NCBI GenBank assembly: GCA_037441675.1
Contig: JBBIRS010000001.1
Span: 101,428-165,427, forward strand
DNA length: 64,000 nucleotides
Origin: Planctomycetales bacterium
GTDB taxonomy: Bacteria > 4484-113
Direction: 5' to 3'
A model generated the notes under the pieces. That model worked only from the letters and a program-made list of their open reading frames with translations. It had not been told where the DNA came from and did no database searches. The position numbers and the translations under genes are program-made. How positions within the stretch are numbered: position 1 is the stretch's first letter; each line of letters starts with the position of its first letter. Positions 18,289-58,303 of this stretch are shown here, in pieces.

Positions 18289-18302
18289 GACATCTAGTTC
18301 AG

Positions 18303-36086: not shown

Positions 36087-37763
36087 ATGCGCAGTTTAAT
36101 TTTCACTTTAGCGTTGGTTCTCTCCCTGGCTCTATCCACAGGAGCTTTTGCTCAGATGTTTAGGGATGTTCCACCGGATCACTGGGCATACGAAGCCATT
36201 GATTATCTCCAGCAAGAGGGCCTTGTAGAGGGTTACCCAGATGGTACCTTCCAGGGTCAGCGCTCCTTTACCCGTTACGAAATGGCTATGGTTGTCGCAC
36301 GTATCTACTCCAAGCTGGATGAGAAGCTTTCAGCTTTTGATCCTGCTAAGCTGGACGAGATTAACTCTCGCTTGGATCAGCTTGCCAATGAGTTCAAGGA
36401 CGAATTGGCAGAGTTGGGTGTCCGTTTGGACCAGCTTGAGAGCACAGTCTCTCAGCATGGTAAGGACATTGACCAGCTCAAAGCTCTTATCCGCGAGTCA
36501 AATTTAAGTGGCGTTTATCGTGTGCGAACCGGTGCGTACGTAGATACCGGAGTTGTTGATATGTCCAACGACTTCGGTCACGAGCAGTGGATTGAACTCC
36601 ACTATGGCTTCCAGCCAGAGGAGAACATTCGCTTTGATTTCAGCCTAACATCGGCTGAGGCTCAGGGTGCTGTAGGAACGGGCATCATTCCAGGTGCTGG
36701 AAACGAGACTGCCTTTACGACCATTGCCACTCCTCCCAACTTCTACTCTCAAGCAGCTTCCAGCTTCGTTCTTGACAAGGCAATGGCAACAATTGACCTG
36801 ACACCTTACACTGATGCATTTGGTGACACTCCCACGCTGACTGTTGGTCGTCAATACTTCAGTGAGGGCGAGTTTGGGCTAGCTGGCGATAACGGCTTCC
36901 GTTCCAACTTCGGTTACCGTTTTGACACAACGTGGGAGGATGGTGAATGGGCGTTCTATGTTGGTGCATACCGCGTGGAGTCCGCGCCAGCAACTTTCGC
37001 ACCATTCTTTAACCCCTTCACTAGAAGCTTCATGTCCAGTGCCATCAATGCTCCATTTGACAGTGATGATTACGTAAATCTCGGTTTCAAGTACAGAGGG
37101 CGCGAGGGCAAGTTCCCCGGACACGATTACGATCTCGCTATTAACATTGATGGTAGCCCCAATGGTTACGGTGCTGAGCAGTTTCTAAGCATTTCTGGAA
37201 ACGCGGAAATTCCGTGGTTTGATGACGAATGGCTTAACGGCATCCGTGCTGAGTGGGTTTGGGTACCAAACAACGTTAGCGACTTCGACGCGGAGGATAT
37301 CGGGCTTGAGGATATGAACACAATCGTTGGGCTTGACATCTACAACGATGGCAGAACAAAGTTCACCCTCTACGGTGCAAGCATTGCCCAGCTCGAAGGT
37401 CTACCAGTTTTTGCCAACGTTGATAACGATCCCTTCAGCGAGTGGGACTACACTGTGAACGGTCCAGGTGATGCCTTTAACTTTAGCCGTGAGGGTAAGA
37501 ACTTCTTCCCGTCAGACTTTGAAGGTATTGGTGTTACCTTTGAACACACCTTCCCCAACGATCTTTACGGGAAACTCACGTGGTACACTGGAGAGCGTAT
37601 TAATGCGTTCTTTGATGCACGTCCTGACCTCCTGAAGTTCAATTTCCGTTACCCATTTGCTAAGAATGCTTCACTTGGGTTGGACGTGATTACTTCTGGT
37701 CAGAGCGATGGTCTTGAAGACGCTATTACTCTCGTTCGTGGTGAGTTCTTACTTCACTTCTAG
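36087..37763 (+). CDS. SLH-domain outer-membrane porin (OmpM/Slp-type): signal peptide, SLH domain, coiled coil and C-terminal beta-barrel ending in Phe
   Basis: Signal peptide ...GAFA; SLH motif FRDVPPDHWAYEAIDYLQQEGLVEGYPDGTFQGQRSFTRYEMAMVVARI; heptad-rich segment; beta-strand-rich, aromatic-rich C-terminal half ending ...FLLHF. Confidence 0.8.
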   Translation: MRSLIFTLALVLSLALSTGAFAQMFRDVPPDHWAYEAIDYLQQEGLVEGYPDGTFQGQRSFTRYEMAMVVARIYSKLDEKLSAFDPAKLDEINSRLDQLANEFKDELAELGVRLDQLESTVSQHGKDIDQLKALIRESNLSGVYRVRTGAYVDTGVVDMSNDFGHEQWIELHYGFQPEENIRFDFSLTSAEAQGAVGTGIIPGAGNETAFTTIATPPNFYSQAASSFVLDKAMATIDLTPYTDAFGDTPTLTVGRQYFSEGEFGLAGDNGFRSNFGYRFDTTWEDGEWAFYVGAYRVESAPATFAPFFNPFTRSFMSSAINAPFDSDDYVNLGFKYRGREGKFPGHDYDLAINIDGSPNGYGAEQFLSISGNAEIPWFDDEWLNGIRAEWVWVPNNVSDFDAEDIGLEDMNTIVGLDIYNDGRTKFTLYGASIAQLEGLPVFANVDNDPFSEWDYTVNGPGDAFNFSREGKNFFPSDFEGIGVTFEHTFPNDLYGKLTWYTGERINAFFDARPDLLKFNFRYPFAKNASLGLDVITSGQSDGLEDAITLVRGEFLLHF

Positions 37764-38485: not shown

Positions 38486-39484
38486 ATGTTAGAAAGGCTT
38501 GTAGAGCAAAAAGGCGCTGAATCGCCAGGCATCCCACAAGATGAACTTATGGTCGCAAACCAAGGGATTCAACGCATCATTGACAATGTTGAGAAGGTTA
38601 TATTTGGCAAATCAGAGGTAATCAGGAGAATTATAGGTGCAGTACTGGTAGATGGGCACGTTTTACTAGACGATGTGCCTGGCATTGGCAAGACTATGCT
38701 AGCTAAGGCTTTAGCAAAATCAATTTCCGCTGAATTCCGACGTATTCAATTCACACCTGATTTGTTACCATCGGACATTACTGGAAGCTATATTTTTAAC
38801 CAGAAAACCGGCGAGTTCACGTTTAGAGCCGGTCCTATTTTCGCAAATATTGTACTTGCAGATGAGATAAATCGCGCTTCACCGAGAACCCAGTCATCGC
38901 TCCTTGAAGCCATGGAGGAAAGACAGGTCACGGTTGATGGTGTCTCCCATGCTCTTCCTCAGCCATTTATTGTTATCGCAACTCAAAACCCGATTGAACA
39001 TGAAGGAACCTACGACCTACCGGAGGCTCAGCTGGATAGGTTCCTAATTCGGGTAAAAATAGGTTACCCTCCTTCTGATGAGGAGGCAGAAATACTAGAA
39101 GCGCAAAGAGAGGAGCATCCAATTCACTCGCTAAAGTCTGTGATTGACCTGCAAACCCTTGAAAAGTATAGAATTATGGCGAGAAAGGTATATGTCAAAC
39201 CAAGCATCAGGAGGTATATTGTAAGTATAAGTAACGAAACTCGTAGTCATCCGGATGTTCTGGTAGGAGCATCAATTCGCGGTAGTCTAGCCCTTATGCG
39301 TTCTGCTCAAGCAAAAGCTCTCATTGAGGGTAGAGATTACATTACGCCGGAAGACGTTAAGGAAATGGCGCCGTTAGTTTTGAGTCACAGGATAATTTTA
39401 CTTCCATCCGCATCGCTCTCTGGGCTTAAAAGTGAGACTACTATCCAAAATGTTCTAAAAAGAGTTCCAGTTCCTCTGCAATAA
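38486..39484 (+). CDS. MoxR-family AAA+ ATPase
   Basis: Walker A GIGKTMLAKALAKS, RIQFTPDLLPSDITG and Walker B LADEINRA. Confidence 0.9.
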   Translation: MLERLVEQKGAESPGIPQDELMVANQGIQRIIDNVEKVIFGKSEVIRRIIGAVLVDGHVLLDDVPGIGKTMLAKALAKSISAEFRRIQFTPDLLPSDITGSYIFNQKTGEFTFRAGPIFANIVLADEINRASPRTQSSLLEAMEERQVTVDGVSHALPQPFIVIATQNPIEHEGTYDLPEAQLDRFLIRVKIGYPPSDEEAEILEAQREEHPIHSLKSVIDLQTLEKYRIMARKVYVKPSIRRYIVSISNETRSHPDVLVGASIRGSLALMRSAQAKALIEGRDYITPEDVKEMAPLVLSHRIILLPSASLSGLKSETTIQNVLKRVPVPLQ

Positions 39485-39507
39485 GTTTATAGTAAGATTT
39501 ATTTGAG

Positions 39508-40749
39508 TTGAGCTTTCTTACCCCAAATTCTAAGGTTTTAATTGCTTTAACCGCATTCACAGGTGTCTTAGCACTCATATTTCAGGGGCACCTATTAGTC
39601 TACACCGGCATTTTGTTGTTGACCACATGTGTAACTCTCTTCATCTGGTCTTTCCAATGCACTAAGGGACTAACCATTGAGAGAGAACATACTCAAATAT
39701 GTATGAAGGGGCAGAACGTTTTAGTTACGTTAAAGCTCATAAACCGCAGCAAATATCCAAGATTTTTAGTCTTCGGATACGATTACTTTCCTGCCGAAAG
39801 AGCTGGAGACACTTATAAATCTGTTATCTTTCCATCGGTGGCAAAGCACTCTGAAGCCCTTTATAGATACCAAGCCTATGCAGCAAGACGAGGGGTTTAT
39901 AATGTGGGTCCATTTTATTTCTATTCAGGCGACCCACTCGGTTTCTTTCGCCATGTAAGAAAAGTTGATGTTTATACGAAGATTACGGTTGTTCCTGTTC
40001 CTCTGCCTACAAGGTTAAATTACCTACAGTCCCGTTCAAGGATCCAAAAGGACGAGTATTCAACCATTGCAGTTCCAGGTCAATCAACCGAATTTCTTGG
40101 AGTTAGGGAGTACCAGCATGGTGACCCACTTCGCAAGATTCATTGGATGTCCACTGCAAGGACAGGAGAGCTTATCACAAAGCAGTTTGAGAAAAACGTG
40201 GCTTCTTCGTTGTCCATACTGTTAATAAACTATCCAGAACTCTCAAATGGCAAATTTGAGGAGCATACACCCCTTGAATACTCCATAACCATAATCTCAA
40301 CTCTAGCCAACGAAGTCAGTCGTCGTAGAAGTTATGTTTCATTCAAAGAACTAAATGGGAACTCCCCTCGCTCTGCCTCGGGAATGGGTGAGAGCTTCTT
40401 TGAAACTCTCTCTTATACTTTAGCATCGGTCACAAAGGGGGAACCATTTGAGCTGAAAAGCTATTACGAAGAAATTATGCGTTCTTTACCTTCCAGCTCA
40501 GATTTAATAGTTATTATCCCAACGCTTTCCAGTATAGACGCTGAAATTCTCTCTCATTTGCGCCTGAATTTCAAAAGCTTATCAGTTCTTACCTTTGACT
40601 TAAATAGTTTTATCACTGCTGTTCCTAGAAGAGCAGAAAAAACCCGCTTTACCTTCGCAAGGAACTTTATGGCTTTTGAAATTGCATTTGGCGATGATTT
40701 GACTTCAAAGTTAGAACAATTTATTGGGAAAGCTGGTCTGATTAAATAG
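39508..40749 (+). CDS. DUF58 family protein (vWA-like), MoxR partner
   Basis: N-terminal TM helices; REYQHGDPLRKIHWMSTARTGELITKQFE core motif. Confidence 0.8.
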   Translation: MSFLTPNSKVLIALTAFTGVLALIFQGHLLVYTGILLLTTCVTLFIWSFQCTKGLTIEREHTQICMKGQNVLVTLKLINRSKYPRFLVFGYDYFPAERAGDTYKSVIFPSVAKHSEALYRYQAYAARRGVYNVGPFYFYSGDPLGFFRHVRKVDVYTKITVVPVPLPTRLNYLQSRSRIQKDEYSTIAVPGQSTEFLGVREYQHGDPLRKIHWMSTARTGELITKQFEKNVASSLSILLINYPELSNGKFEEHTPLEYSITIISTLANEVSRRRSYVSFKELNGNSPRSASGMGESFFETLSYTLASVTKGEPFELKSYYEEIMRSLPSSSDLIVIIPTLSSIDAEILSHLRLNFKSLSVLTFDLNSFITAVPRRAEKTRFTFARNFMAFEIAFGDDLTSKLEQFIGKAGLIK

Positions 40750-40752
40750 ATA

Positions 40753-43158
40753 ATGAGTACATCTCAGTTCACTGGCGTAATAGATAATAGGCGCAAAGGC
40801 GAAAGAATAGCGCTATTTCTAATAACCTGTCTGGCAAGCTTATTAGGCTTACATATCCTCGATCTTGGTCTTGACAACCTGCATTTCAAGTTAACGCTTG
40901 TGCCCATTCTAATAGCAGGTTTTGCCTTCAGTTACTCTCTTGACGAAAGGTACCATCGCGTCACCCGTGTAATCGTCAACATCCTTGCAGTCGTTTCAAC
41001 CTTCTATTTCTTTCGGCAGATAATTAACGACCCAACTTCCCTCGGTAACTGGTTGGGTATGCTACTTGGCGTCCTGATGGTTCTTCTCAGTTTTGTAGCG
41101 TTTGCACCGGTTACTCACAGGATGTTTGCAACCATTGGAATAGTCTTCACTCTATTTTCTGCAGCAGCTAGCTATGAGTTAAAGATTGTCATATTCTTTC
41201 CGATATTTATGGCATTAGCGGGGTGTCTTCTTTATTTTTCATATTCCTTGGAACTGGCTGAAAAGGCTCAGGGCTTTACCGTAAGTGAGGATAATCTCAA
41301 TGAGAAGGCATCTCTACGATGGTTCTCAGCTCTAAGAATTATCATTCAACTTGTGTTTGGTGTATTTATTCTGTCTATTATTGTTTACGTTATTGTTCCG
41401 CATTACACTGACGTTAACCGCCCAGCTTTTCTATTACCAAGAAGCGGAAGTCTTGGCGATACCTTTAATGCTCTTAACTTAGAAGACGGACTAGACGAAA
41501 CCGAAAGGACAGGTGAGGCATTGAATATCACTCGCTTTTCAGAGGAGTTTGATCTTTCCGGTTCTTCTTCAATCTTTGGTGATAGGCGATTGTTCGAGAG
41601 TGATGAGCCAGCCATTGCAATGCGTAGCTCACAAAATTCTTATCTCAGAGGAGTGGTGTTTGATCTTTACACCGGCAGGCGTTGGATGACTTCTACTGAT
41701 GCTGAAGCAGTTCGCATTAGACCGATCGGTGGTAGAAAATTTTATCTTCTCACAAACGTGTTCGGCTTCCCACTTTTGGATTTTCCCTCGCGTACACTAG
41801 AGAAAAATTACCTCTCTAGGATTAACGTCAGTGTAGTTGAAGGAAATCAATATTCATCAACTCAGAATATAGAACTAAATTATGACCTGCACACACAAGA
41901 AATTGAGTTTCTAAAGGATCATCCGCCAGTGATTTTCACTGCCTATCAACCAATTAGGATTGAAAACCTTAGCGCCGTTAGAAGGGCAAACGAACTGGCA
42001 GAAAGCCCCGTTCCCTTTATGGATGCTTTCTCTATCGTAAGAACTAGGCTTTCCAGACATCCCGCAGGATTTAGATACAATGCAACGGTCTTAAGCCCAA
42101 GGTATACTCGGTCAGCTTTAGTGCTAGCGGGTGATGGAGTTCCAGAAGGGATACGTAAGCTATACCTCCAGTTGCCGACCGAAGAGAATCTAAAAGCACT
42201 CAAAGAGATTTATGGTGATGATGTCGCGCCAGTATCCGAGAGAGTTCGTCGGCTAGCGAGAACGATAGTTTCCGAAAGCCAAAATGTTTACGAAAAGGTT
42301 CAAAAGATTTACGATTATCTAATGAGCGAGCTAACTTACACGCTGGACTTTCCTCCACTTCCAGCTGGAGCAGAAGCAACAGAGTACTTTCTTTTTAAGA
42401 CGCAGAATGGTTTCTGTATGCAGTTTGCTTCTGCAATGGCGGTTCTTTTAAGGCTCAATGACATACCCGCACGAGTGGTTGCCGGCTATGCTCCAGGACA
42501 ATATTCAATAATTCAGAACAAATATATATTCAAAGATAAAAATGCTCATGCGTGGGTGGAGGTATACTTTGATGGCATTGGCTGGGTGCCCTTTGACCCC
42601 TCACCAACCTCCTCGGATATCTTCACTCTTTCCGGTGTCAAGGCTATTGGTTCCACACTCCTTAATTTCCTTGAAAACCTCTTCGTAATTGACCCCCAAG
42701 GTGCTAGGCTTACCCTTTTGAAATTTCTTAAGGGCGTTTACACCATAATAGCGCCAATTGCGCTGAAGTTCTGGTATATTCCAGTGGTATTGGTTGGCTT
42801 CCTGCTCTTTTTAGTTATCGCTTTACATTTTCATAAAAGGATAAAAAGATTCAAACAGTTTTACGCCGAGAATGAAATAGTAGAATGCTTCAGAGAATTT
42901 CAAGAAACTCTTAGTAGATATGCAATGCCCCGTGAGGCTTATGAAACCGCTGGAGAATACTACGGAAGAATTTCTTATGTCTTTACTCCATTAAGGGACA
43001 GCTTAAAAGAATTTATTGACATCTACAGTCGAGCAGCATTCTCAGGAAGAATACCAACAGAACGGGATATCTCATTCGCTAGGGAATTCACTTCAAAGGC
43101 AAGGGAGTATATTGCCTCAGCTTCGGGGGACGAGATTAAAGATGCAAGTAGTATTTAA
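40753..43158 (+). CDS. membrane protein with a transglutaminase-like domain (TgpA-like) and a C-terminal DUF4129 domain
   Basis: Several N-terminal TM helices; Cys-His-Asp core FCMQFASAMAVLLRLNDIPARVVAGY...AHAWVEVYFDGIGWVPFDP; C-terminal TM followed by a DUF4129-like segment. Confidence 0.85.
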   Translation: MSTSQFTGVIDNRRKGERIALFLITCLASLLGLHILDLGLDNLHFKLTLVPILIAGFAFSYSLDERYHRVTRVIVNILAVVSTFYFFRQIINDPTSLGNWLGMLLGVLMVLLSFVAFAPVTHRMFATIGIVFTLFSAAASYELKIVIFFPIFMALAGCLLYFSYSLELAEKAQGFTVSEDNLNEKASLRWFSALRIIIQLVFGVFILSIIVYVIVPHYTDVNRPAFLLPRSGSLGDTFNALNLEDGLDETERTGEALNITRFSEEFDLSGSSSIFGDRRLFESDEPAIAMRSSQNSYLRGVVFDLYTGRRWMTSTDAEAVRIRPIGGRKFYLLTNVFGFPLLDFPSRTLEKNYLSRINVSVVEGNQYSSTQNIELNYDLHTQEIEFLKDHPPVIFTAYQPIRIENLSAVRRANELAESPVPFMDAFSIVRTRLSRHPAGFRYNATVLSPRYTRSALVLAGDGVPEGIRKLYLQLPTEENLKALKEIYGDDVAPVSERVRRLARTIVSESQNVYEKVQKIYDYLMSELTYTLDFPPLPAGAEATEYFLFKTQNGFCMQFASAMAVLLRLNDIPARVVAGYAPGQYSIIQNKYIFKDKNAHAWVEVYFDGIGWVPFDPSPTSSDIFTLSGVKAIGSTLLNFLENLFVIDPQGARLTLLKFLKGVYTIIAPIALKFWYIPVVLVGFLLFLVIALHFHKRIKRFKQFYAENEIVECFREFQETLSRYAMPREAYETAGEYYGRISYVFTPLRDSLKEFIDIYSRAAFSGRIPTERDISFAREFTSKAREYIASASGDEIKDASSI

Positions 43159-43900
43159 CGCGGATGACTTTGGCTTACATCCCGTGATTTCAGAAGGGAT
43201 ATTGAGGGCGCTTGATGCTGGTATCGTTCGTTCTACCTCGGTTCTGGCTACAACGGTAAGCTTGGATGAGCTAAACTCCTTTGAGAGGCTGAAAATAAGG
43301 GGAGGTTCTCTAGGCATCCATCTTTCCCTTACGCAGGGGAAACCCCTCACGGATTTTCCAGATGAATTTCTGAACGAAGACAAGAAATTCAAGAAAGAAA
43401 TTATGTTTTCTCCGATGGGTATTCCCCGTTTAGCCGAGGATATTCTTGAAAAAGAAATTCAAGCCCAGGTTGAAGCAATTATGCCATACGGTCCAACTCA
43501 CATTGATTCTCATCATCACATTCATTCGTTCCACTCAGTCCTTCAGATTGTTGCGAGATTCGCGCAAAAGTATGGCTTAGCGGTCAGAGCTCTTTCTGAA
43601 AGTATGCGCGGTTATCTTATCTCACAAGGGGTTCGATGCTGTGATGTTTTTATAGATGGCTTTTTTGGGAAAAATAACTTGACCGAGATGAAGTTACTAG
43701 CCTTGATAGAGGATGTATTACTTAAAGGCGCAAAAAAGGTAGAAGTTATGTGTCATCCTGGTTTCTCTAACAATCTCCCAAGGGGATTGACCTCATATGC
43801 AGATGAGAGAGAAATAGAACTCGGCATTCTAACCTCATCAGAACTTGCCAGCGAACTGAAACGAAGAGGGATTGAAATTATTAGCTATGACGCGGTTTAG
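43142..43900 (+). CDS. YdjC/ChbG-family carbohydrate deacetylase; its start overlaps the TgpA stop by 17 nt
   Basis: MQVVFNADDFGLHPVISEGILRALDAGIVRSTSVLATT, plus downstream His-rich metal-binding segments. Confidence 0.7.
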   Translation: MQVVFNADDFGLHPVISEGILRALDAGIVRSTSVLATTVSLDELNSFERLKIRGGSLGIHLSLTQGKPLTDFPDEFLNEDKKFKKEIMFSPMGIPRLAEDILEKEIQAQVEAIMPYGPTHIDSHHHIHSFHSVLQIVARFAQKYGLAVRALSESMRGYLISQGVRCCDVFIDGFFGKNNLTEMKLLALIEDVLLKGAKKVEVMCHPGFSNNLPRGLTSYADEREIELGILTSSELASELKRRGIEIISYDAV

Positions 43901-46556
43901 TATTTATCTAGAAGCTCTCGTAATCGTCACGGTTATGCCGTTATTCTTTTCTTGCGCTAGTGAAACTTCTGTGAGTGGCAGTAATCTTAGTTCTAGGGTT
44001 AATTATTCTCGACCTGGTGCCCATCCAATTGCGTCGGAACTTTCATCCCTAGACTCTGCGCTCAGGATTGGTTCATTCTATTTAATCTTTGGTAAGAATT
44101 CACCCTTGCGCGCAGAACTTGAGGAAGAAAATATAATTTTCTCTACCGTCTCAAGTGGCGAGCTTAGGATAAACGTAGTCCAGAAAATTTCATCCCCACT
44201 TGAATTTCAGATTTTATCTGATGATGGTTTAGTCGCGGATTACGTGTCTGTGATGAACATTGATGAAGCCGATCAGAGTACTTTTGGTGTTTTAATATCG
44301 GATGATAAGCGTGGTATTTCAGAGATTTATTTTTCGTCAGTAAGAAGGGCGGAAGTTCCTCCATCAACACTACTTGTAATTTTTAGAAAGCAGGCTTCGC
44401 ATGAAAGAAGTATAAGCTACAAGGTATTTGGCAACCCTGTGGGAAAAGCTTCATCCAAAGTCGTCTCTAGGGCATTTGAAGGTTCTAAAAACCAAGTTAC
44501 AGACCTTTCAGCCTCACCATCAGATGGCGGCTTTAGCCTCAGATGGAAAGAAAAAAATAAGGGTGATTACAACAATGACGGGAAAGTGACAATTGCAGAC
44601 GTTAGACCATTAGCTCTTCATTTTTTCCACACTTCTCCCTATAACGGAAATGAGCCAAGAGATGCGCTGGACGCATTAATTGATGGAAATGAGGATGGCG
44701 AAATCGACATTCAAGATGTTCAAGAAATTGCTCTGAACTTCTTTTCCTTCATAGCTGGCTATGATGTGTTCATTGTTCCACTTGAGTCTATTGATGATGA
44801 AGTAACTGAGAAGGATTTTCTCGCAAGTGGCTCAATTGCCAATCCGTACGATCCCAATAATCCACGTCCCACTGTTCCTCGTAGCAACTTCTACACAGAT
44901 GGGCTACCTCCAAGCGAATTAATAGAATACACCTTTAATTATCCACTTTCTCCGGGTATTTACGCCGTTGCAGTTCGCTCTTATTCCGATGAAGATGATA
45001 ACTATGATAGCGTCCCATTTTCCAACTTTGAGAAGTTTGAGATTTCTTCACTGCCGGTAAATCAGCCTCCACAGTGGACAAACCCCTCGGAGCCTGGCGT
45101 GTTGAGTTTTACCTCCCTAGATGGCGGGGCTAGAATAACCTTTGGTGATTCTTTTGATCCTGACGGTGATGAAATTATTTATAGAATTTTCATCAAGCAA
45201 GGACCATCACTTGATCCTTCTGACCCAACGGTAACAAGAATTGATGTTCTAAGAAGCGACTTGACGAGTACCCAAACACCCCCATTCACTTACGACGTAG
45301 GTGCTCTTGTTAATGGCTTATTTTACTCAGCAATGGTTAGAATTTACGATGCACATGGATTGGAAGAGAGCCCACCCAACTCAGTTGTTGCAACTTTTGT
45401 TCCACATTCAAGTGCCCCAAATCCCCTCCCCTGGCCATACTTTAGAAAGGATGAAGCAAGAACAGGGTTAAGTGTGTTGAATTCTCTACATGAGCCGCTG
45501 GAGGAAGTTTGGCGCAGAACTTATAAGGATTTCGGGTCTTTTAGCGGTGCTTCACCAGTGTTGGATGAAGCACTGGTTTATATAGCTTCCGTAGATGGCG
45601 CAGTTTGGGCTTTTGACCAGATTACTGGTGAGCTCAAGCTGAAACAAACTTTATCTCCAGGTTCAATTGAATCGACAAGCGCACTTTACGGCGATTACCT
45701 TATTCAAGGCGTGAGAGGCAGGTATCTCATCCTAACACGAGATGAAGATGGGGGTATGGTTCAGTTTTCACAATTCTCACTTGAGAGTCCTCTCGTGGTT
45801 CATTCGTCGCCGGTGATTATTGGTGGACTCATTTATGCAGGCAGTAACGAAGGCGATGTTTATGCGTTCAGCCTAGACGGTTTTCAACTCTGGAGGCAAG
45901 ACCTAGGAGTTAGCAGGATTTCTTCAAGCCCCACTACCGACGGAGAGTTCTTATACGTGGCGAACGACGAAGGTTTTGTTTTCAAACTGAGCTTGGATAG
46001 CGGTGAAATCGTAGATTTTTCCAACGACCTTGGGGATATTAGCTTTACTTCTCCTATCCCATTTCCACCTGAAAATCCAAGTTACATTCTAATCGGAAGC
46101 GACTATGATGGGCAGGGGGATAATGGTGTTTTTAGGCTTAATGCCCAAGATTTCAAGGATTCAGTCAAGCTTGCGACCAATCGCGGTATTAGGTGCACGC
46201 CGTTGGTTATCCAAAATGGCGCTACTACAACAGTTGTCGTAGGCGACTTCAACCCAGGGCTTGTTCCTGATCCAGAAACCAGGATTTACGCGTTTAACCT
46301 GGAAACTGGCGAAAAACTTTGGGAAACTCCTCCAACAACAAATATCGGAGGAGTAGTTTCATCTCCGGTTGCGACGGGGGACAGAATCTTTGTAGCTACT
46401 GCTACTGGGTTACTCTATGTTTTTGATTATGATGGAAACCAAATGGGGCAGGCCCTGAATGTCGGAGGGGCAGTTTACACTACACCTGCGATTAGAGAAA
46501 ATTGGATTTACCTCACGAATAGCCTAGCCGAGATAGTGGCTTTTAGAACCCAATAA
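43872..46556 (+). CDS. secreted, possibly lipoprotein, multidomain protein: dockerin-like Ca-binding repeats, an FN3-like region and a PQQ/BamB-like beta-propeller
   Basis: Signal peptide ending ...LFFSCAS; dockerin-like GDYNNDGKVTIADVRPLALHFF and DGNEDGEIDIQDVQEIALNFF; repeated PQQ-type blades such as ALVYIASVDGAVWAFD, GLIYAGSNEGDVYAF, EFLYVANDEGFVFKL and RIFVATATGLLYVFD. Confidence 0.6.
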   Translation: MKLLAMTRFSIYLEALVIVTVMPLFFSCASETSVSGSNLSSRVNYSRPGAHPIASELSSLDSALRIGSFYLIFGKNSPLRAELEEENIIFSTVSSGELRINVVQKISSPLEFQILSDDGLVADYVSVMNIDEADQSTFGVLISDDKRGISEIYFSSVRRAEVPPSTLLVIFRKQASHERSISYKVFGNPVGKASSKVVSRAFEGSKNQVTDLSASPSDGGFSLRWKEKNKGDYNNDGKVTIADVRPLALHFFHTSPYNGNEPRDALDALIDGNEDGEIDIQDVQEIALNFFSFIAGYDVFIVPLESIDDEVTEKDFLASGSIANPYDPNNPRPTVPRSNFYTDGLPPSELIEYTFNYPLSPGIYAVAVRSYSDEDDNYDSVPFSNFEKFEISSLPVNQPPQWTNPSEPGVLSFTSLDGGARITFGDSFDPDGDEIIYRIFIKQGPSLDPSDPTVTRIDVLRSDLTSTQTPPFTYDVGALVNGLFYSAMVRIYDAHGLEESPPNSVVATFVPHSSAPNPLPWPYFRKDEARTGLSVLNSLHEPLEEVWRRTYKDFGSFSGASPVLDEALVYIASVDGAVWAFDQITGELKLKQTLSPGSIESTSALYGDYLIQGVRGRYLILTRDEDGGMVQFSQFSLESPLVVHSSPVIIGGLIYAGSNEGDVYAFSLDGFQLWRQDLGVSRISSSPTTDGEFLYVANDEGFVFKLSLDSGEIVDFSNDLGDISFTSPIPFPPENPSYILIGSDYDGQGDNGVFRLNAQDFKDSVKLATNRGIRCTPLVIQNGATTTVVVGDFNPGLVPDPETRIYAFNLETGEKLWETPPTTNIGGVVSSPVATGDRIFVATATGLLYVFDYDGNQMGQALNVGGAVYTTPAIRENWIYLTNSLAEIVAFRTQ

Positions 46557-46679: not shown

Positions 46680-47426
46680 ATGAAGTACGCTCTGAATGCG
46701 CTGGATTTTGTGGGTGGCTTAGGTGTGTATTTGTGGAGGACTTTATACTTTCTCGCCACAGGGAAACTTAACTACAGACTAACTACTCGCCAAATGGATC
46801 TGCTCGGGATTAATTCAGTTCCCCTTGCTATGTTAGTATTAGCTTTTGTCGGGGCGACTGTAACTTATCTACTCGTTGAAGAACTTGGTAAACGTGGTCT
46901 TAGTTCTTACATTGGTGGATTTCTTCTCGTGGGATTACTGAGAGAACTTATCCCAATACTTACCGGGGTTGTTTTGGCAGGCAAGGCTGGAGCTGCAATT
47001 ACTAGTGAAATTGGGTCGATGAAAATAACCTCGCAGATTGATGCCCTTGAAGCGCTTTCCACTGACCCACATTGGTTTCTAACCGCTCCCCGAGTAATAG
47101 CTCTTATCATCACAACACCTGTAGTGGGAACGTTTGCAGGTTTTGCTGGTTTTTATGCTGGCTACTTTATGGTTTACGCCAAGCTTGGTATGCCATTTGC
47201 GGGTTATGTCGCTAATATAGATAAGTTTGTAACTGATAACGACTTCTTTGCCTGTTTAATAAAGCTCATTATCTTCGGTGCCGTTGTAGCTATAACTGGC
47301 TGTTTTATGGGCTATCGCGTGGAAGGTGGCGCTGAAGGCGTGGGCAAGTATGTCACATTGTCTGTTGTCTTGAGTATAGTTTTAATCTTTGGCCTTGACC
47401 TTCTCTTATTGCCAGTACTATTTTAA
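46680..47426 (+). CDS. mlaE: MlaE-family ABC transporter permease
   Basis: YrbE/MlaE-like topology and conserved N-terminal LDFVGGLG...[13 protein letters not shown]. Confidence 0.8.
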
Positions 47427-47427
47427 G

Positions 47428-48210
47428 ATGTTGGAACTTAGAAAAGTTAGCGCTGGCTATAATGGCCAGGTAGTCCTTAAAGATATTAACCTAAATGTCC
47501 CCGAGCAAAGCATAACTGCCATCATAGGAACTTCTGGCTCCGGCAAAAGCACTCTCTTGCGAGTGATAATGGGCTTCTTAAAGCCTTACTCCGGAGAAGT
47601 GCTCGTTGATAACGAAGACATAGCAAATAGTAGCCCCGCTTCAGTTGCCAAGCTTCGGGAGAAGATGGGATTGGTTTTCCAGGAGCTAGCTCTCTTTGAT
47701 TCATTAACGGTGGAAGAAAACGTTGCTTTCTACCCACATTACCGCCAGAAACGCAAATGGAGGGAAGTTGTCCCCCTTGTGAAAGGGATACTAAAGGAGT
47801 TGGGTCTTGAAGGTTTGGAGAAGAAATATCCTTCAGAGCTTTCGGGGGGAATGAAACGGAGGGTTGCAATTGCCCGTTCTCTCATATATCGCCCAAAGAT
47901 ACTACTTTACGATGAACCAACAGCTGGTTTGGATCCTACAACAACCGCATTGGTTAACGACCTAGTTGTTGAAATGCGCACCAAGTTCAAGGTCAGCTCC
48001 TTAATCGTGACTCACGATTTGGAAAGTGTTCTTAACATTGCGGATAATGTTTATCTACTATCAAATGGCACTGCCAGTTTTATTGGCGCTCCCATATCAC
48101 TGCTTGTTAGCAATGACGAGCGGGTGGTTAAATTTACCGCCTCTTGGCGTAAGTATTTCAGAGAAATCCAAGGTATAGTTGAAAGAGAGGAGAGTGGAAC
48201 CATCAATTAG
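47428..48210 (+). CDS. mlaF: MlaF-like ABC transporter ATP-binding protein
   Basis: Walker [13 protein letters not shown] signature LSGGMKRR and Walker B LLYDEPT. Confidence 0.85.
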
Positions 48211-48229
48211 TTAATACTAGGAGTGGAAT

Positions 48230-49573
48230 ATGAGAGGCATATCGGAACAGGTGAAAATTGGAATTTTTATTGTTATTGCGGTTGGATTAGCCTACTTCGG
48301 CTACAACTCAGTTATAAAAATTACAAAACCTAGTACTTACTCAGTTAAAGTTGAATTTAAGGATGCACGTGGAATTTCAAAAGGGACGCCTGTGCGTCGG
48401 GCGGGAACCGACATTGGCTGGGTAGAAAGTGTTAGCCTTGATTCGGAAAGGGGAATCGCCGTTGCTGACGTTAGGATATTATCAAGAGCAACATTTCCCA
48501 AAGATGCCATATTCTACATAGTTTCGGAAGGGTTGATTGAGGAAAAGTTTCTCCTGATTCGTGATAGTCCAAAACCCACTCCTGGACTTGGATACGCTGA
48601 GGAAGGAGATATTTTTCAGGGTGAGCTTGCCCCAGGCTTTACCGATATACTGAGAAGCGCAAACGAGGCACTAATACAAGTAAACCGAATACTGAATGTA
48701 GCTGGCTCCTTTATGAGTGAAGAAAAACTGGGAGGAATAGTTCAGGAGCTACTTTCTGAGCTTAATTCTACTATAGGTTCAGCGAGGGTAGTTTTGGAGC
48801 GAATAAGCTCGCTTCTAGGCTCAACTCAAGGAGATATAACCGATACAGTTAAAAATATTCAACAAGCCACTTCCGACTTGAGCGAGGTTTCAAGGGAAGT
48901 TAAGTTAGCGGTTCAACAGACCGACTTACCAAATAGAGTGGAAGCACTTCTTATGCAGATTGATGCTAGCCTTTCTTTGATAAATAAAATCGCCTCAGAT
49001 ATAGCAGAGCTTACCTCTGATGAGCAGTTCAAGGACGATATTAAGGGGGTTTTCCATGAGGGGAAAGAAGCTCTGACGGAAAGTAAAGAAACCCTAAAAA
49101 CGCTGAGGGGAACTTTAGAGAAGGTGGACAAAAAGCTAGAAAGATTTGGAGGTTTGGGGTTTGAGGGAAAGTTGAATATTAGAAATGAAAGTACTCACAA
49201 TAAGAGTAGAAGTGATAATGCCTATATTGATGTCAAAACGAGGGTAACTGTGGGTGAAAATAGCCTTGACCTCGGTGTAGAAAATCTTAGCGAAGACACC
49301 CCTGAAGACGCAGGAATGGTTCTACAAGTTGGAAAGAAAGCTGGGGATTCTATTCTTGTTCGTGGAGGGGTTTATCGTGATGAGCTTGGAGTAGGTGTTG
49401 ATCTTTTTGGTGGAGATTCTGTTTCGCTCTCATTAGATGCTTTTAATCTAAACAATCCCGCTCTGAATTCATATCTCACTTTACCCTTTCCGCGTAGGTT
49501 CAAACTTCTCCTGGGAGTGGAGGATGTAGGAGACCGCAATCAATACAACGCAGGTATACAGGTGCACTTTTAG
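48230..49573 (+). CDS. mlaD: MlaD-like MCE-domain protein with a long helical extension and a C-terminal beta-rich segment ending in Phe
   Basis: N-terminal TM helix; MCE domain YSVKVEFKDARGISKGTPVRRAGTDIGWVESVSL; about 250 aa of coiled coil; C-terminus ...YNAGIQVHF. Confidence 0.75.
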   Translation: MRGISEQVKIGIFIVIAVGLAYFGYNSVIKITKPSTYSVKVEFKDARGISKGTPVRRAGTDIGWVESVSLDSERGIAVADVRILSRATFPKDAIFYIVSEGLIEEKFLLIRDSPKPTPGLGYAEEGDIFQGELAPGFTDILRSANEALIQVNRILNVAGSFMSEEKLGGIVQELLSELNSTIGSARVVLERISSLLGSTQGDITDTVKNIQQATSDLSEVSREVKLAVQQTDLPNRVEALLMQIDASLSLINKIASDIAELTSDEQFKDDIKGVFHEGKEALTESKETLKTLRGTLEKVDKKLERFGGLGFEGKLNIRNESTHNKSRSDNAYIDVKTRVTVGENSLDLGVENLSEDTPEDAGMVLQVGKKAGDSILVRGGVYRDELGVGVDLFGGDSVSLSLDAFNLNNPALNSYLTLPFPRRFKLLLGVEDVGDRNQYNAGIQVHF

Positions 49574-49576
49574 GTC

Positions 49577-52500
49577 GTGAAAAAAAAACCTAAAATACCT
49601 CGCTTCATCATCATTCTGTTCTCGTTTCTACTCATACTTTCTTCTGTTCTCTTATACCTTCTTTGGCTGAAAGTTCCGAAAATATTGGAGGAGAAAACAA
49701 AGGCGCTGATAAACGATTTTGTGCAGAAAAGCGAAATTGGAGAGCTTAAATTCGATTCAATAAGCCTTAGACTTGCTTTTCCATCTTCAATTATTCTAAG
49801 AAATGTTGAATTAAGAATACCAGAGCAAAATGAATCGCTTCTCACTGCCAAATCAGTTAGGCTGAGCTTACCTCTCGTTAAAGTCCTAAGGGGAAAGTAT
49901 CCAATCAATGTCAACTTAACTTTTGAGAAAGCAAAAATCACGATTCACTACTTTGGCAATGGTAAATTCAGCATTTCCCCTATGATCGAAAGCTTGCTGA
50001 GAAAAAAGAAAAAGGTCACAGAAGTATCGAGTATTCGAGCGTCTTCTCAAAACTTATCTATGATAATCTTGATGGATGAGGGTAGTTCTTCTGATATCTC
50101 AACTGCTATAAAGAATAATATTTTGCCTAGAAGGGCTTCCCTGCTAAAGAACTTAGACAAGATTTCTAAAATGTATCATGTAAAGTGGGAAGGGGGAGCG
50201 GTTTCAATAGTTGACGAACTATTAACGAGTTTGAGTTTTATTAAACCACGAAAGGCTGTTAACTTTAATCTCACATTTAGCTTCAATCATATCTTCCAAA
50301 CGGGAATGAGCTATGTTCACCTGCGTTTAACCTCTCCTGTTAAAGCTGAATTCAAATCAACCCTTTCCTTTATATCAGGGAAGTATGAAATCAACGGGAA
50401 AGTGAATGAGTTAATACCTTCAGATTTGCCATTGTCTCTTCCAAGAATTTTAGAAAAATCGATGGAAAAGACTGTCTTGTCTCTTTCCGGCGTTCAGATT
50501 AGTATTTCACCTAAAAAGAGAAAAGTGTTGTTTGATACTCTGCTAAAAGACCTCACAATTCCCCTTGGCGGTAATAATGAGATAAAAGTGCCAACTATTA
50601 CGGTAGTGAAAAAGGCGCAAGGATATTTTCTTAAAAGTAAGCTAAGCATAGTTGAAGGCATAGCTGATGTAAGTTTAACTTGGGGCAAAACTCCACTCCT
50701 AGCGCTTAAATTCAACGATTTTCCTTTCAGCAGTATTGCGAAATCAATCGGTGCCTTTAGTGTTGCCTCTATGGATGGAGAGCTAACGTTGAAAAAGACG
50801 AACTCCCAATGGTTGAGTAACCTTAACCTCAATCTAACGGACTTAGAAGCAGAGACTAAAAAAGTTTTGGACATACTAGAACTAAAGGGTCAGGTTTCTA
50901 ATCAATTAAATCTAAGGCTAAATGGTTTTAAGCAAAGAAGGAGGAATTTCTCCCTACTTGTAAGTGGTAATAGCAAAGCTTTCAAATATAAAGCTAGTTT
51001 CTCCTTCACAGGGGGGGAAATAGATTTAGCTCAAAGTATCCAATTAGAATTCCCTATATCCCTCTCTCATTTACATGGGCTCACAGAGGGGGAGATAAAG
51101 ATTTCTCCCCTTCGTATTGAAGGGTCATTTAAGGATACAAGGGCAGAATTTCCCGATTTTTCGGTTCTTTTAAGTAAGGGAGAAGTTTCAATTACCTCTC
51201 AAGCATTTTCGCTCTCACTCAGTGAAGGTGCGCTAATTTTATCTGCTCCATTCAAAGACCAGCATATCCTTCAAGAGTTGTTGCCCACAAGATTCAAATT
51301 AGCAGGTGGTTTCTTTGGAAGTAGAAAGAAGGATTCTTGGCAATTTGGCTGTAATTTATCTGGCGAAGGAAAAGGCTTGAAGTTCCCAATTAGATACAGA
51401 CTTGAAGCTAAAGGCGAAGCCTCTGAGATAAAAACAAACCTGACATTTTATGGTTTTTTTCGTGATGAACCTCTTTTTGGCGTGGCAAACGCCATCGCTA
51501 CTTTCGCTGGCTTAAAAGGCTTCTCCCTTGAGGGTAACCTTGGGAGAACAGAGTTTACCGCGTTTGGTGATATTCCCATTGGCGGTTCATTAAATCTGGG
51601 CTTCAACGCACGTGGCGTGCGCTTTAACGTAAACAATGCAATTGTGAAGCAAATAGGGGAAGCAACTATAGGTGGGCAAGTATCAGGAACTTGGTCAAAG
51701 CCGATTATCTCCGCCATTATTAGTATTCCTAGGGTGTATCTTAGAGAGATAAAATCCGCCGATAAAGAATTTAGCCTTATACGAAACGTTAGCCTGCCAA
51801 TCAGCTGGAATAATAATCAATTAACTTTTCACGAGGGCACCTTCTTTTATAATGGCTCTCTCTGTTACTTTCAAGGCATAGTTCAAGGGGGAAAGTCAGA
51901 TTTCAGCATAACCTCACCAGCTTTTAGCCTAGCTCCTGTTTTGAAAGCGCTCTTCGTAAATCAAACATTTCAATGGGTCGGTAATGGCGAATTTTCAGCT
52001 AGGATAATTTCTCAGAACTCTTCCACTATCTATAAAGCTTCCTTTTCGCAGAGAACGGGAACGTGGGAAGATGTTGGCATTAAGCGAGTGAACTTTCGCA
52101 TAAGTGGCGATAACAACCATTTACGGGTTAGTCAAGGAGAGATTAATCTTGACAAAGGGGGAGCTAAAATCTCAGGCATCCTTTATTTTGGAAGTGGGCG
52201 AGAAAGTGAAGTCACTGCCATATTTGATGATTTCCCATTGTTCGCCGACTTGAGAGGTGCAATAGTCACCCCCTTCAGTGACATTAAAGGTTATCTCTCA
52301 GGCACTATTAGGCTAGCTAATGTTGGTGGTGAATTTCTTGTCTCTGGTGACGTTTCATTGCGCGATGCAAAACTTCTTGGAACTAATTTTGATACGTTTA
52401 AGGTACGCTTTTTCCAGGAAAGAAATGGCGTTCAAATTGATGAATTAGTTCTTTTTAATAACGAGAACTACCTACAAGGTTACGGCTTTTGGGGGGAGAA

Positions 52501-54223
52501 CCCCGCAGATACATTGATAAACCTAGAGGTTCCCCTTATCAATATGGCAATCTTTTCGCCATTTGTTCCAGTTTATCTTTCCCCACTGGAAGGGAATTTT
52601 GGAGCAAATTTAGTCGTTAGACAGAGAAAAACTGGTGAAGCCGAGATAGTGGGAAGTTTCCAGAGCGCTGGAGAGCGGGTTAAACTTGCAGGAGTTGAAT
52701 TTGACAGAATCGAGGGGAGACTGCGTTACTTTAACGGCGTCATTGAAGCTGATAACATTGCCTTAAGGATGGGTTCTTCTAACCTAAAGGCTAGTGGGTC
52801 AATTCCAATTGTCAAGGGTAGCAGGAATCTTCACTTGAGTATAGAAGCAAGTAAGCTAAGTGCTCAATCTATTACCGAAACTCTTCACTATAACAATTTC
52901 AAGAGCGATGGTTATGTGTCTTTTAACCTATCAGTAAGTGGAAGCCTAGAACATCCAGAGTTTGCAGGGACAGCTCTTCTCAATTTGCAGGACGTTCGCA
53001 TACTTGACTTAATTTCACTTCCACGGTTGGATGGTGATTTTCGGATTGAAGAAAATGAGGTATTTATTGATTCACTCAGGGCTTATACTGCCACGCCACC
53101 CATAAACGTGAAAGATGAAGGAAGTTTTGCTGAAGTATCAGGGAAGCTTAAACTTGATCCGTCGCAGAGTAGTATTGACTCAGCTAACCTCATTATTCAA
53201 CTTGATGATACGAACTACATCAAAGTCAAGGGTTACATTGATGGCGGTCTTTCGGGTAGATTGCAACTGGTGAAGCTATCTTCAAAGGATGCCCCCTTGT
53301 TACAAGGTGAAGTAACGCTAAAGAAAGGCTCTGAAGCGAGAATACCTTCCTTACCGCTATCCGCAGTGCCAATCCTTAATAAGGATGCACTGTTAGACAT
53401 TTCACTTACCGTTGAGAAATCCAGCCTCCTAAAGTATCCAGCTGGCGCAATGGAGGCAGAGTTCTATGGAGCTCTCAAGCTTAACGGGTCTCTGTCCTCT
53501 CCACTAATCACAGGCGAACTTATCCTGCCATCTGGTTCAATGGTGGTTTATCATCATTTAGTTCGTCTTATTGAACCAGCGACCATTACATTTTCTCCCG
53601 GTGCTGGCTTTATACCCTTTATAACCGGTGTTGCGTCAACGCATATTCCGGGTGTCCTTGCAGAAACAGCGTCTCCTGTGGTAGATGAGGCAGCTTCCCA
53701 TTTGCTACCTATGTTTCCCCATGCTGATTCAGACCTTACAATTTTCTTCCACTTCAACAACCTGCTTACAGAGGAATCTCTAAATGCAGTTCAGCTTTCA
53801 TCTTCTCCTCCCCTTCCGCAGGAAACCATTCGTTCTTATCTTGTAGGCGAGATGCCGGGGCAGGTCACTAGGAGCTCGCTTGAAACATTGGTGGAAAAGG
53901 AGGCATTGCTCTTTTCTTCAAGCAGATTGTCCAGGTTCCTAGAGGAAACCTTAGAATTCAAAAGATTTGAATTGAGAGCCTATTCAACGCGGGAGGGTAC
54001 TCCACTATACCTAAATGTTGAAAAGAATCTAACAAGTGAGTTATCAGCAAGGTATCTGCAGACCTTCTTTACTACGCTTGACGAGAGGCAAGAACTTGCT
54101 CTCAAATACTTAATTAACAAGAATCCCGCTTATCGCTCATCTCTGGAGGTGTTATTAAGAAGAAGAGCTCAGTTACAGGAAGAATTTGCTATAAATGCTG
54201 AAATTGAACGAAAATTCAAGTGA
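49577..54223 (+). CDS. TamB/AsmA-like giant protein (1548 aa) with an N-terminal TM anchor and a DUF490-like C-terminus
   Basis: Single N-terminal TM helix, a very long beta-rich body, and a C-terminal segment ...YLNVEKNLTSELSARYLQTFF... typical of TamB; 3-nt gap after mlaD. Confidence 0.65.
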   Translation: MKKKPKIPRFIIILFSFLLILSSVLLYLLWLKVPKILEEKTKALINDFVQKSEIGELKFDSISLRLAFPSSIILRNVELRIPEQNESLLTAKSVRLSLPLVKVLRGKYPINVNLTFEKAKITIHYFGNGKFSISPMIESLLRKKKKVTEVSSIRASSQNLSMIILMDEGSSSDISTAIKNNILPRRASLLKNLDKISKMYHVKWEGGAVSIVDELLTSLSFIKPRKAVNFNLTFSFNHIFQTGMSYVHLRLTSPVKAEFKSTLSFISGKYEINGKVNELIPSDLPLSLPRILEKSMEKTVLSLSGVQISISPKKRKVLFDTLLKDLTIPLGGNNEIKVPTITVVKKAQGYFLKSKLSIVEGIADVSLTWGKTPLLALKFNDFPFSSIAKSIGAFSVASMDGELTLKKTNSQWLSNLNLNLTDLEAETKKVLDILELKGQVSNQLNLRLNGFKQRRRNFSLLVSGNSKAFKYKASFSFTGGEIDLAQSIQLEFPISLSHLHGLTEGEIKISPLRIEGSFKDTRAEFPDFSVLLSKGEVSITSQAFSLSLSEGALILSAPFKDQHILQELLPTRFKLAGGFFGSRKKDSWQFGCNLSGEGKGLKFPIRYRLEAKGEASEIKTNLTFYGFFRDEPLFGVANAIATFAGLKGFSLEGNLGRTEFTAFGDIPIGGSLNLGFNARGVRFNVNNAIVKQIGEATIGGQVSGTWSKPIISAIISIPRVYLREIKSADKEFSLIRNVSLPISWNNNQLTFHEGTFFYNGSLCYFQGIVQGGKSDFSITSPAFSLAPVLKALFVNQTFQWVGNGEFSARIISQNSSTIYKASFSQRTGTWEDVGIKRVNFRISGDNNHLRVSQGEINLDKGGAKISGILYFGSGRESEVTAIFDDFPLFADLRGAIVTPFSDIKGYLSGTIRLANVGGEFLVSGDVSLRDAKLLGTNFDTFKVRFFQERNGVQIDELVLFNNENYLQGYGFWGENPADTLINLEVPLINMAIFSPFVPVYLSPLEGNFGANLVVRQRKTGEAEIVGSFQSAGERVKLAGVEFDRIEGRLRYFNGVIEADNIALRMGSSNLKASGSIPIVKGSRNLHLSIEASKLSAQSITETLHYNNFKSDGYVSFNLSVSGSLEHPEFAGTALLNLQDVRILDLISLPRLDGDFRIEENEVFIDSLRAYTATPPINVKDEGSFAEVSGKLKLDPSQSSIDSANLIIQLDDTNYIKVKGYIDGGLSGRLQLVKLSSKDAPLLQGEVTLKKGSEARIPSLPLSAVPILNKDALLDISLTVEKSSLLKYPAGAMEAEFYGALKLNGSLSSPLITGELILPSGSMVVYHHLVRLIEPATITFSPGAGFIPFITGVASTHIPGVLAETASPVVDEAASHLLPMFPHADSDLTIFFHFNNLLTEESLNAVQLSSSPPLPQETIRSYLVGEMPGQVTRSSLETLVEKEALLFSSSRLSRFLEETLEFKRFELRAYSTREGTPLYLNVEKNLTSELSARYLQTFFTTLDERQELALKYLINKNPAYRSSLEVLLRRRAQLQEEFAINAEIERKFK

Positions 54224-54230
54224 GGATAGG

Positions 54231-54659
54231 ATGGAGACCAAATTCGAATACAGTGATTACTGCTTTGCTTGCGGTGGCTTAAATCCTCTAGGTTTGCACT
54301 TGCAATTCTCTTTTGAAGATGGCAAGTTAAAGACCGAATTTCTTCCCCATCAACAATTTCAAGGCTATCAAGGATTGTTGCACGGCGGACTTGTTTGCAC
54401 GATTCTAGATGAGTTGATGGTTCACTTAGTAACTCGTCTCTTTAGTAAGGTTGTGGTGACTGCTGAGCTTTCAGTTCGGTTCAAGCGTCCTGTGGAAGTT
54501 GGCAGATTACTAATTGCACAAGCAACTTTAATTAAGCATCGGAAGAAGGTTTATCATTGCACGGGAGAGCTCCTTGAAGCTGAAAACTCTAACCTTATCG
54601 CCGAGGGTAAAGCAATGCTGGTAGAACCTGCGTCACATACTGAAGTTAATGTATGCTGA
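54231..54659 (+). CDS. hotdog-fold thioesterase (PaaI/4HBT-like); start at METKF, overlapping the tamB-like gene's 3' end
   Basis: GLLHGGLVCTILDELMVHLV motif and hotdog length. Confidence 0.65.
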   Translation: METKFEYSDYCFACGGLNPLGLHLQFSFEDGKLKTEFLPHQQFQGYQGLLHGGLVCTILDELMVHLVTRLFSKVVVTAELSVRFKRPVEVGRLLIAQATLIKHRKKVYHCTGELLEAENSNLIAEGKAMLVEPASHTEVNVC

Positions 54660-56632: not shown

Positions 56633-58303
56633 TTAAATATTACCACTTACTTTCAGTCCGTATTTCTTAGCGGTAGCAATTGCTTCCTCATATCCCGCAT
56701 CTGCGTGGCGCATAATTCCTGTCCAGGGGTCAGAATTTAGCACCTTCTCAATCTTTTTCGCCTGCTCATTGGTCCCATCTGCGACAACGACCATTCCAGC
56801 GTGAAGCGAGTAGCCTATCCCAACACCGCCTCCATGGTGAAAGCTTACCCAACTTGCTCCACATACCGCATTTAATAGCGCATTGAGCACAGGCCAATCT
56901 CCAATAGCATCACTTCCATCCTTCATTCCCTCTGTTTCACGATTTGGACTAGCCACGCTACCCGAATCAAGATGGTCTCTTCCTATAACGATAGGCGCTT
57001 TGACCTTACCCTTTTTGACTAGCTCGTTGAACAAAAGCCCAGCCTTATCCCTCTCATAATATCCCAACCAGCATATCCGTGAAGGTAATCCCTGAAACTT
57101 AACTTTCTCTCCCGCCAGCTTAAGCCATCTTTTCAGATGCTCTTTCTCTGGGAAAAGTTCTGCAAGAGCTCTGTCGCTTTCTTATATATATTGAGGATCA
57201 CGTCAAAGTGCACCCCATCTAAATGGACCCTCACCACGGCAGAATAGTGGTCTTATATAAGCCTGCACGAAGCCGGGGAACTTAAATGCATCCTTTAGCC
57301 CTCTATTTTCCGCCACCTGCCCACGAATATTGTTCCCGTAGTCAAATACAACAGCTCCGCTATCTTGAAAAGCAAGCATTGCTTTCACCTGTTTTGCCAT
57401 GCTATCGTAGGCAAGCTCACGGTACTTTTCCGGTGACGTGTGTCGAAGTTCTAGCGCCTCTTCATAGGGAATACCTGCAGGTACATAGCCATTCAGCTCA
57501 TCATGGGCGCTTGTTTGGTCAGTGACCACATCCGGGATAATCCCCCTTCTCACAAGCTCCGGATGGGTATCTGCGGCATTAGCAGTTAGTCCAATTGAGA
57601 GAGCCTCACCTTTTTCTTTCGCCCTCAAAGCCATTTCCACCGCTTCGTCAAGATTGTCTGCAACCGTATCCAAATACCCTGTTTTCAGCCTTCGTTCAAC
57701 TCTATCCTTATCAACCTCAACGCAAATACCGACACCACCGTTCATAGTTATTGCTAAAGGTTGAGCACCACCCATTCCACCAAGACCTGCGGTCAGAACA
57801 AGCTTGCCCTTTAGGCTTCCATCAAAATGCTTATTAGCCACAGCGGCTAATGTTTCATACGTTCCTTGCAGGATTCCTTGGGTGCCAATATAAATCCAGC
57901 TCCCGGCGGTCATCTGGCCAAACATAGTCAAGCCCATTCTCTCGTATTTTCTGAAATTCTCCCAAGTTGCCCAAGCGGGGACAATAACACTATTCACTAT
58001 CAAAACTCTTGGCGCCCATTCGCTGGTTGGGAATATGCCCACCGCCTTTCCTGATTGGACCAAAAGGGTTTCGTCGTTTTCAAGATGCCTTAGCGCTCTT
58101 AATATCCCTTCAAAGCATTCCCAATTTCTTGCAGCTTTTCCAGTCCCGCCATAAACAATAAGCTCTTCAGGCTTTTCAGCAACTTCAGGGCTTAAGTTGT
58201 GCTGTATCATTCTATAAGCCGCCTCTTGCACCCACCCCTTGCAGTTAAGTTGATTTCCAGTAGGGGGGGTAACCACTCGGTGTTCTGTCTTCATCATAGC
58301 CAT
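56633..58303 (-). pseudogene. hutU: urocanate hydratase (hutU) interrupted by two in-frame stop codons
   Basis: N-terminal ORF 57203-58303 and C-terminal ORF 56633-57067 are in the same frame and together align to full-length urocanase (...[36 protein letters not shown]...). TGA at 57203-57205 replaces a Ser codon and TAA at 57182-57184 replaces a Tyr codon. Confidence 0.75.

Follow-up and report, generated by a model that had tools for sequence, protein, structure and literature searches.

The MlaD protein of Veillonella parvula is 419 amino acids (aa) long and combines a membrane anchor with an MCE domain, some 150 residues of helix and a barrel of ten strands; on fractionation, the barrel domain is recovered with the outer membrane (PMC10665443, Grasekamp et al. 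2023). The V. parvula locus is ordered mlaEFD-tolC-tamB, and mutations in tamB suppress the lipid-asymmetry phenotypes of V. parvula mla mutants, an argument for Mla and TamB acting in opposite directions (PMC10665443). Barrel-bearing MlaD has been inferred in 103 sequences from diderm Terrabacteria and some Proteobacteria (PMC10665443), and Acetonema longum has a long barrel-bearing MlaD of 425 aa (PMC13018214). Here we describe an mlaEFD operon with a 447-aa MlaD in a 64-kb stretch of DNA (64,000 nucleotides (nt) of contig JBBIRS010000001.1, referred to as the window) from a 'Planctomycetales bacterium'.

The operon very probably encodes a three-component, transenvelope Mla-type phospholipid transporter comprising the MlaE permease, the MlaF ATPase and the long MlaD. 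Gene content, domain order, homology to the MlaD of Negativicutes, synteny and a confident barrel prediction with outer-membrane-like features underlie this assignment. MlaD here shares with the V. parvula and A. longum proteins an anchor, a single MCE domain, an extended helical region and a predicted C-terminal 10-stranded barrel; all testable elements of the long barrel-bearing form are present. The barrel-bearing MlaEFD type is already described in Veillonella and other two-membrane bacteria, and the current picture is unchanged by its presence here in a poorly studied uncultured lineage.

The mlaEFD operon and the architecture of MlaD

The operon and the parts of MlaD are as follows (coordinates in the window, basis in parentheses).

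46680..47426, + strand: mlaE, inner-membrane permease of an ATP-binding cassette (ABC) transporter, 248 aa (Pfam MlaE)
47428..48210, + strand: mlaF, ABC ATPase, 260 aa from the ATG at 47428 (ABC_tran, E 9e-38)
48230..49573, + strand: mlaD, long form, 447 aa plus stop (open reading frame (ORF); GGAG Shine-Dalgarno)
48245..48322, + strand: predicted N-terminal transmembrane helix of MlaD (inner-membrane anchor), residues 6-31 (hydropathy; model)
48335..48628, + strand: single MCE domain of MlaD, residues 36-133 (PF02470; profile; model confidence)
48638..49141, + strand: predicted helical stalk of MlaD, residues 137-304, 168 aa (model; hydropathy period)
49154..49570, + strand: predicted 10-stranded beta-barrel of MlaD, residues 309-447 (structure model)
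49547..49570, + strand: beta-signal-like C-terminus NAGIQVHF, MlaD residues 440-447 (consensus fit)

The genes mlaE, mlaF and mlaD are real and closely packed. An initial annotation of this DNA had placed an mlaEFD operon at 46680-49573, and three ORFs with PF02405, ABC_tran and PF02470 matches are indeed found there. The mlaE product matches PF02405 over profile positions 2-209 of 212 (E 1.5e-61) and the NCBIfam MlaE-family subfamily model TIGR00056 with E 6.8e-54, under the curated cut-off of that model; it is 66-71% identical to the MlaE copies of eight related loci (L001-L008). Translation of mlaF likely starts at the ATG at 47428, 1 nt past the mlaE stop; an overlapping TTG at 47389 was considered as the start and disfavoured. 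The best NCBIfam matches of the product include the MlaF equivalog NF008809 (E 1.4e-50, under cut-off), and the translation displays a Walker A motif (GTSGSGKST), a signature motif (LSGGM) and a Walker B motif (ILLYDEPT). A GGAG Shine-Dalgarno sequence lies 7 nt 5' of the mlaD ATG. Scans for promoters and terminators in this DNA gave 15 hits where 15.3 were expected and 10 where 8.3 were expected, no better than chance, and were not used.

MlaD contains one hydrophobic segment, at approximately residues 8-28 (the best 19-residue Kyte-Doolittle windows begin at residues 3-11), which is modelled as a helix spanning residues 6-31. The N-terminus thus has the appearance of an uncleaved anchor helix preceding the MCE domain, as in other MlaD proteins, and neither hydropathy nor the structure model of MlaD points to the cleavable N-terminal signal peptide of outer-membrane proteins that depend on BAM (beta-barrel assembly machinery). 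PF02470 recognizes a single MCE stretch, at residues 36-108 (E 4.7e-13). Solved MlaD chains, such as 6zy2 (E 1.5e-14), are hit by the family profile over residues 1-141, and the MCE domain reaches a predicted local distance difference test score (pLDDT) of 82-90 in the full-length model. The wider barrel-bearing family has the MCE consensus GLxGE; the clade studied here has a conserved GLIEE at residues 101-105 (48530-48544), with Glu replacing the second Gly.

The stalk is modelled as five helices in the monomer, with low confidence. Averaged over the family, its hydropathy is dominated by one period, of 3.45 residues (power 144, median 4; range 3.45-3.55), a heptad-like value that fits a coiled-coil tube. 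If it formed one continuous helix, the stalk would be about 25 nm long, since it comprises 168 residues at 1.5 Å per residue. Of the architecture given in the initial annotation, the transmembrane anchor, the MCE domain, the total length of 447 aa and the C-terminal NAGIQVHF are borne out by the translation and the analyses above, and the description of the middle region as coiled coil holds for its helical, heptad-like character; its length is about 168-175 aa and not the 250 aa or so originally suggested.

The predicted C-terminal barrel domain and its homologues

We modelled the barrel domain alone, using residues 300-447 and 11 family sequences. The resulting model is confident (pLDDT 86.6; predicted template modelling score (pTM) 0.79) and comprises ten strands, and the same ten strands are present in the full-length model. 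Foldseek matches of the barrel model are mostly outer-membrane proteins, including Ail, OmpA, OmpX, KdgM and OMPLA, and outer-membrane barrels rank first in both fold searches. Family-wide, alternate positions of the barrel strands average +2.13 and -1.58 on the Kyte-Doolittle scale, a difference that was reached in none of 5000 shuffles. The segment is rich in glycine (13% of residues 306-447, compared with 6% in the stalk), and the conserved glycines of the domain lie on the polar face of the strands; in our reading, this face is a narrow barrel's crowded lumen. The C-terminal eight residues, NAGIQVHF, fit the beta-signal consensus (zeta-x-G-x-x-[aromatic/hydrophobic]-x-[aromatic/hydrophobic]; PMC10945584) at all constrained positions, and the pattern N-A-G-[IV]-[QS]-[VIL]-x-F is kept in all 18 close homologues. 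The glycine- and beta-rich character of this segment and the resemblance of its terminal aromatic residue to that of outer-membrane barrel proteins had both been put forward from the sequence, and both agree with these results; the segment is predicted to be a barrel rather than a disordered region.

A 10-stranded barrel may also be soluble. The C-terminal domain could be a periplasmic barrel with a hydrophobic lipid cavity, comparable to fatty-acid-binding proteins or nitrobindin, which would form a built-in MlaC-like cup at the tip of the stalk and would have no membrane anchor. We consider this very improbable: conserved glycines and charged residues lie on one face, as expected of a crowded polar lumen, the very C-terminus is conserved and agrees with the BAM beta-signal, and the homologous V. 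parvula domain is recovered in the outer-membrane fraction (PMC10665443). Compared with OpcA and OmpT, which are small 10-stranded outer-membrane barrels, sequence identity is only 7-10%; those proteins are free-standing and secreted, with signal peptides, whereas the predicted outer-membrane barrel here is the C-terminal end of a protein anchored in the inner membrane.

The close MlaD family is small, comprising 18 proteins of 446-449 aa that are 45-64% identical. All 18 carry a precomputed Pfam label for PF27164 in addition to the MCE label, and PF27164 is the sole label on a 105-aa fragment whose only match is to the C-terminal profile; the curated family PF27164 therefore seems already to cover the barrel domain, although the Pfam copy used here did not report it. 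When a profile of the barrel domain was searched exhaustively, 278 cluster representatives were retrieved; in nearly all of them the domain forms the very C-terminal end of a protein of 420-660 aa, and an MCE domain is present in 63 of 66 barrel-domain proteins that were sampled. MlaD of Selenomonas ruminantium (Negativicutes) aligns over residues 27-447 with 25% identity (E 2e-27), and the C-terminal domain alone aligns with the Selenomonas MlaD C-terminus up to the final Phe (E 6e-11). On these alignments, the C-terminal domain is homologous to the Negativicutes MlaD barrel. The initial annotation had matched the protein to the long MlaD of diderm Firmicutes and proposed a comparison with Veillonella and other Negativicutes; architecture and homology uphold that match, but the host is not a Firmicute (see below).

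A proposed transenvelope lipid transporter

The locus resembles the Veillonella type in having an mlaEFD operon adjoining tamB and an OmpM-type envelope, with no MlaA, MlaB or MlaC nearby. It differs in its MlaD, which is about 25% identical (as measured on Selenomonas) and has a stalk of about 168 aa compared with about 150 aa, in a conserved downstream thioesterase gene and in its host, which is of a '4484_113'-type uncultured lineage. In Selenomonas, mlaE, mlaF and mlaD are followed by ORFs of 535 aa and 1450 aa, an order that, by size, fits the published mlaEFD-tolC-tamB. Here no ORF lies between mlaD and the tamB-like gene, in the place where Selenomonas has the 535-aa ORF and V. parvula has tolC.

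MlaE, MlaF and the MCE domain are homologous to those of Escherichia coli MlaFEDB. By contrast, E. coli MlaD has 183 aa, with a short helix and no barrel (PMC10665443), and the E. coli system depends on three proteins for which the window has no gene: soluble MlaC, the lipoprotein MlaA and cytoplasmic MlaB. As the initial annotation had also stated, no match to the MlaA, MlaC or STAS/MlaB families was obtained among ORFs of at least 60 aa in the 64-kb window. MlaD scores 59.9 bits against the canonical MlaD equivalog TIGR04430 (cut-off 135) and is 447 aa long, compared with about 180 aa; judged by profile score and length, it is not of the canonical E. coli type. PqiB, LetB (YebT) and mycobacterial Mce1, for which an MCE ring with an elongated, envelope-spanning tube is likewise proposed, have MCE domains that are matched by the profile. 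The protein described here has a single MCE domain, as against three in PqiB and seven in LetB, and Mce1 assembles as a heterohexamer; a 10-stranded barrel per protomer is absent from all three, and in Mce1 each subunit contributes one strand to a six-stranded barrel (PMC10665443).

For hexamer formation, outer-membrane insertion, substrate and transport direction, we infer the following arrangement by homology. MlaD would be held in the inner membrane by its N-terminal helix, with its MCE domain sitting on MlaE, and its stalk of about 168 residues would cross the periplasm to place the C-terminal 10-stranded barrel in the outer membrane, where it would presumably be inserted by BAM via the terminal beta-signal. 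By analogy with every characterized MCE protein, six MlaD copies would assemble into a ring and a helical tube that is hydrophobic inside, and phospholipids would pass through it between the membranes without an MlaC carrier or an MlaA lipoprotein. Production of MlaD may be translationally coupled to that of the TamB-like bridge protein, which would move lipid in the opposite direction, as the Veillonella genetics suggests.

Four points weigh against this arrangement. The full-length MlaD monomer model is poor (pTM 0.34), with low confidence in the stalk; a low-confidence stalk model was also met for Veillonella MlaD (PMC10665443). In the wider family, the last residue is aromatic in only 46 of 104 long members, and an aromatic residue is found within the last three residues in 63 of 104; a terminal Phe is therefore typical but not universal. 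The exclusion of MlaA and MlaC holds within the 64-kb window only. Finally, the published model does not settle how lipid would get through six narrow barrels (PMC10665443).

An MCE/ABC transporter of this same architecture might also function without Mla-type retrograde phospholipid transport, exporting lipid to the outer membrane or carrying another hydrophobic substrate. The window is uninformative on direction or substrate, the authors of the Veillonella study left the direction of transport open (PMC10665443), MlaD scores well under the equivalog cut-off given above, and a thioesterase gene is conserved 3' of the tamB-like gene. We nevertheless regard this possibility as unlikely, given the strong MlaE and MlaF family matches and the suppression of V. 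parvula mla lipid-asymmetry phenotypes by tamB mutations (PMC10665443).

The locus adds an independent and distant lineage to the case for a three-gene MlaEFD bridge with an outer-membrane barrel being widespread and perhaps ancestral, and the close family, which is sequence-diverse and has a well-predicted barrel, could aid structural work on the barrel end of the bridge.

Neighbouring genes, envelope type and host lineage

Three further features of the window bear on the locus and its host.

49577..54223, + strand: tamB-like (AsmA-like) gene, 1548 aa (Pfam TamB, PF04357)
54195..54659, + strand: hotdog-fold (4HBT) thioesterase gene (PF03061, E 8.1e-11; TIGR00369, E 4.1e-10, above cut-off)
36087-37763, + strand: OmpM-like SLH-domain protein, 558 aa (match to 8bys)

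The tamB-like gene starts 3 nt past the mlaD stop. It had been omitted from the initial description of the operon. PF04357 matches residues 1402-1523 of the product (E 3.1e-14), with weaker matches to DUF748 and YhdP. A tamB-like gene lies directly 3' of mlaD in relatives L001-L008, such that the order mlaEFD-tamB is kept in all eight related loci. The thioesterase gene overlaps the 3' end of the tamB-like gene by 29 nt and directly follows it in seven related loci (L002-L008); it is possibly the last gene of the mla operon. Given its position, acyl-thioester metabolism may have a conserved connection to lipid transport by this operon.

In the same seven loci, the order DUF58 - transglutaminase - YdjC - beta-propeller protein - mlaE - mlaF - mlaD - tamB-like - thioesterase is kept. 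The gene 5' of mlaE (43872-46556, + strand) codes for a beta-propeller protein of PQQ/BamB-like type that has a dockerin-like segment and an N-terminus possibly resembling that of a lipoprotein (...LFFSC). This protein has 894 aa here and 1374 aa in L003 (4261-8385), with about 480 C-terminal residues absent here; we rejected an additional gene as the source of the apparent extra 1.6 kb upstream of mlaE in relatives, which corresponds to the longer beta-propeller protein. There are two sets of MoxR-associated genes in the window: a DUF58/VWA protein at 3653-4975, and a MoxR ATPase - DUF58 - transglutaminase (TgpA-like) trio at 38486-43158 (+ strand), the latter being syntenic with the mla locus in relatives.

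For the SLH protein at 36087-37763, the match to V. parvula OmpM1 (8bys) has E 1.1e-22 and covers the SLH and stalk region; there is also a match to the N-terminus of a porin model of cyanobacterial type. The protein is probably a tether and porin of the outer membrane, similar to OmpM. Because of the OmpM1 match, it indicates an OmpM-tethered outer membrane, the envelope type of the organisms in which the long MlaD was described.

Named relatives of MlaD come from metagenome-assembled genomes (MAGs) called 'Planctomycetales bacterium 4484_113' or simply 'bacterium'. The '4484_113' MAGs are labelled Planctomycetales by NCBI, and '4484-113' is a phylum-level lineage in GTDB, proposed as Ca. Niteriota (PMC11382960). 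We considered and dropped a Firmicute as the host: MlaD is 45-64% identical to homologues of which the named ones come from '4484_113'-type MAGs, and only 25% identical to that of Selenomonas. The Veillonella study reported barrel-bearing MlaD as absent from the Planctomycetes-Verrucomicrobia-Chlamydiae (PVC) group (PMC10665443), and its taxon table has no 'Planctomycetales bacterium' entry; the '4484_113' lineage was therefore apparently absent from its sampling. More tentatively, and with rather less than even probability, the '4484_113' phylum might have a Terrabacteria-style outer membrane (OmpM tether, barrel MlaD and TamB), in which mlaD, tamB and the thioesterase gene would form a co-regulated, two-way lipid-transport module. 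On this tentative reading, the proposed ancestral MlaEFD bridge would reach into a previously unsampled phylum, in MAGs that are filed under the PVC group, from which the barrel was reported to be missing.

Elsewhere in the window, three successive ORFs of 477, 254 and 557 aa at 16086-19976 (- strand) have no Pfam match at E <= 0.001. The urocanase gene (56633-58303, - strand) is split: its N-terminal and Rossmann domains are encoded in the ORF at 57203-58303, and its C-terminal domain, from profile position 63, is encoded in a separate ORF at 56633-57067. The distribution of urocanase domains over two ORFs points, near 57067-57203, to a frameshift, to a pseudogene or to an error in the assembly.
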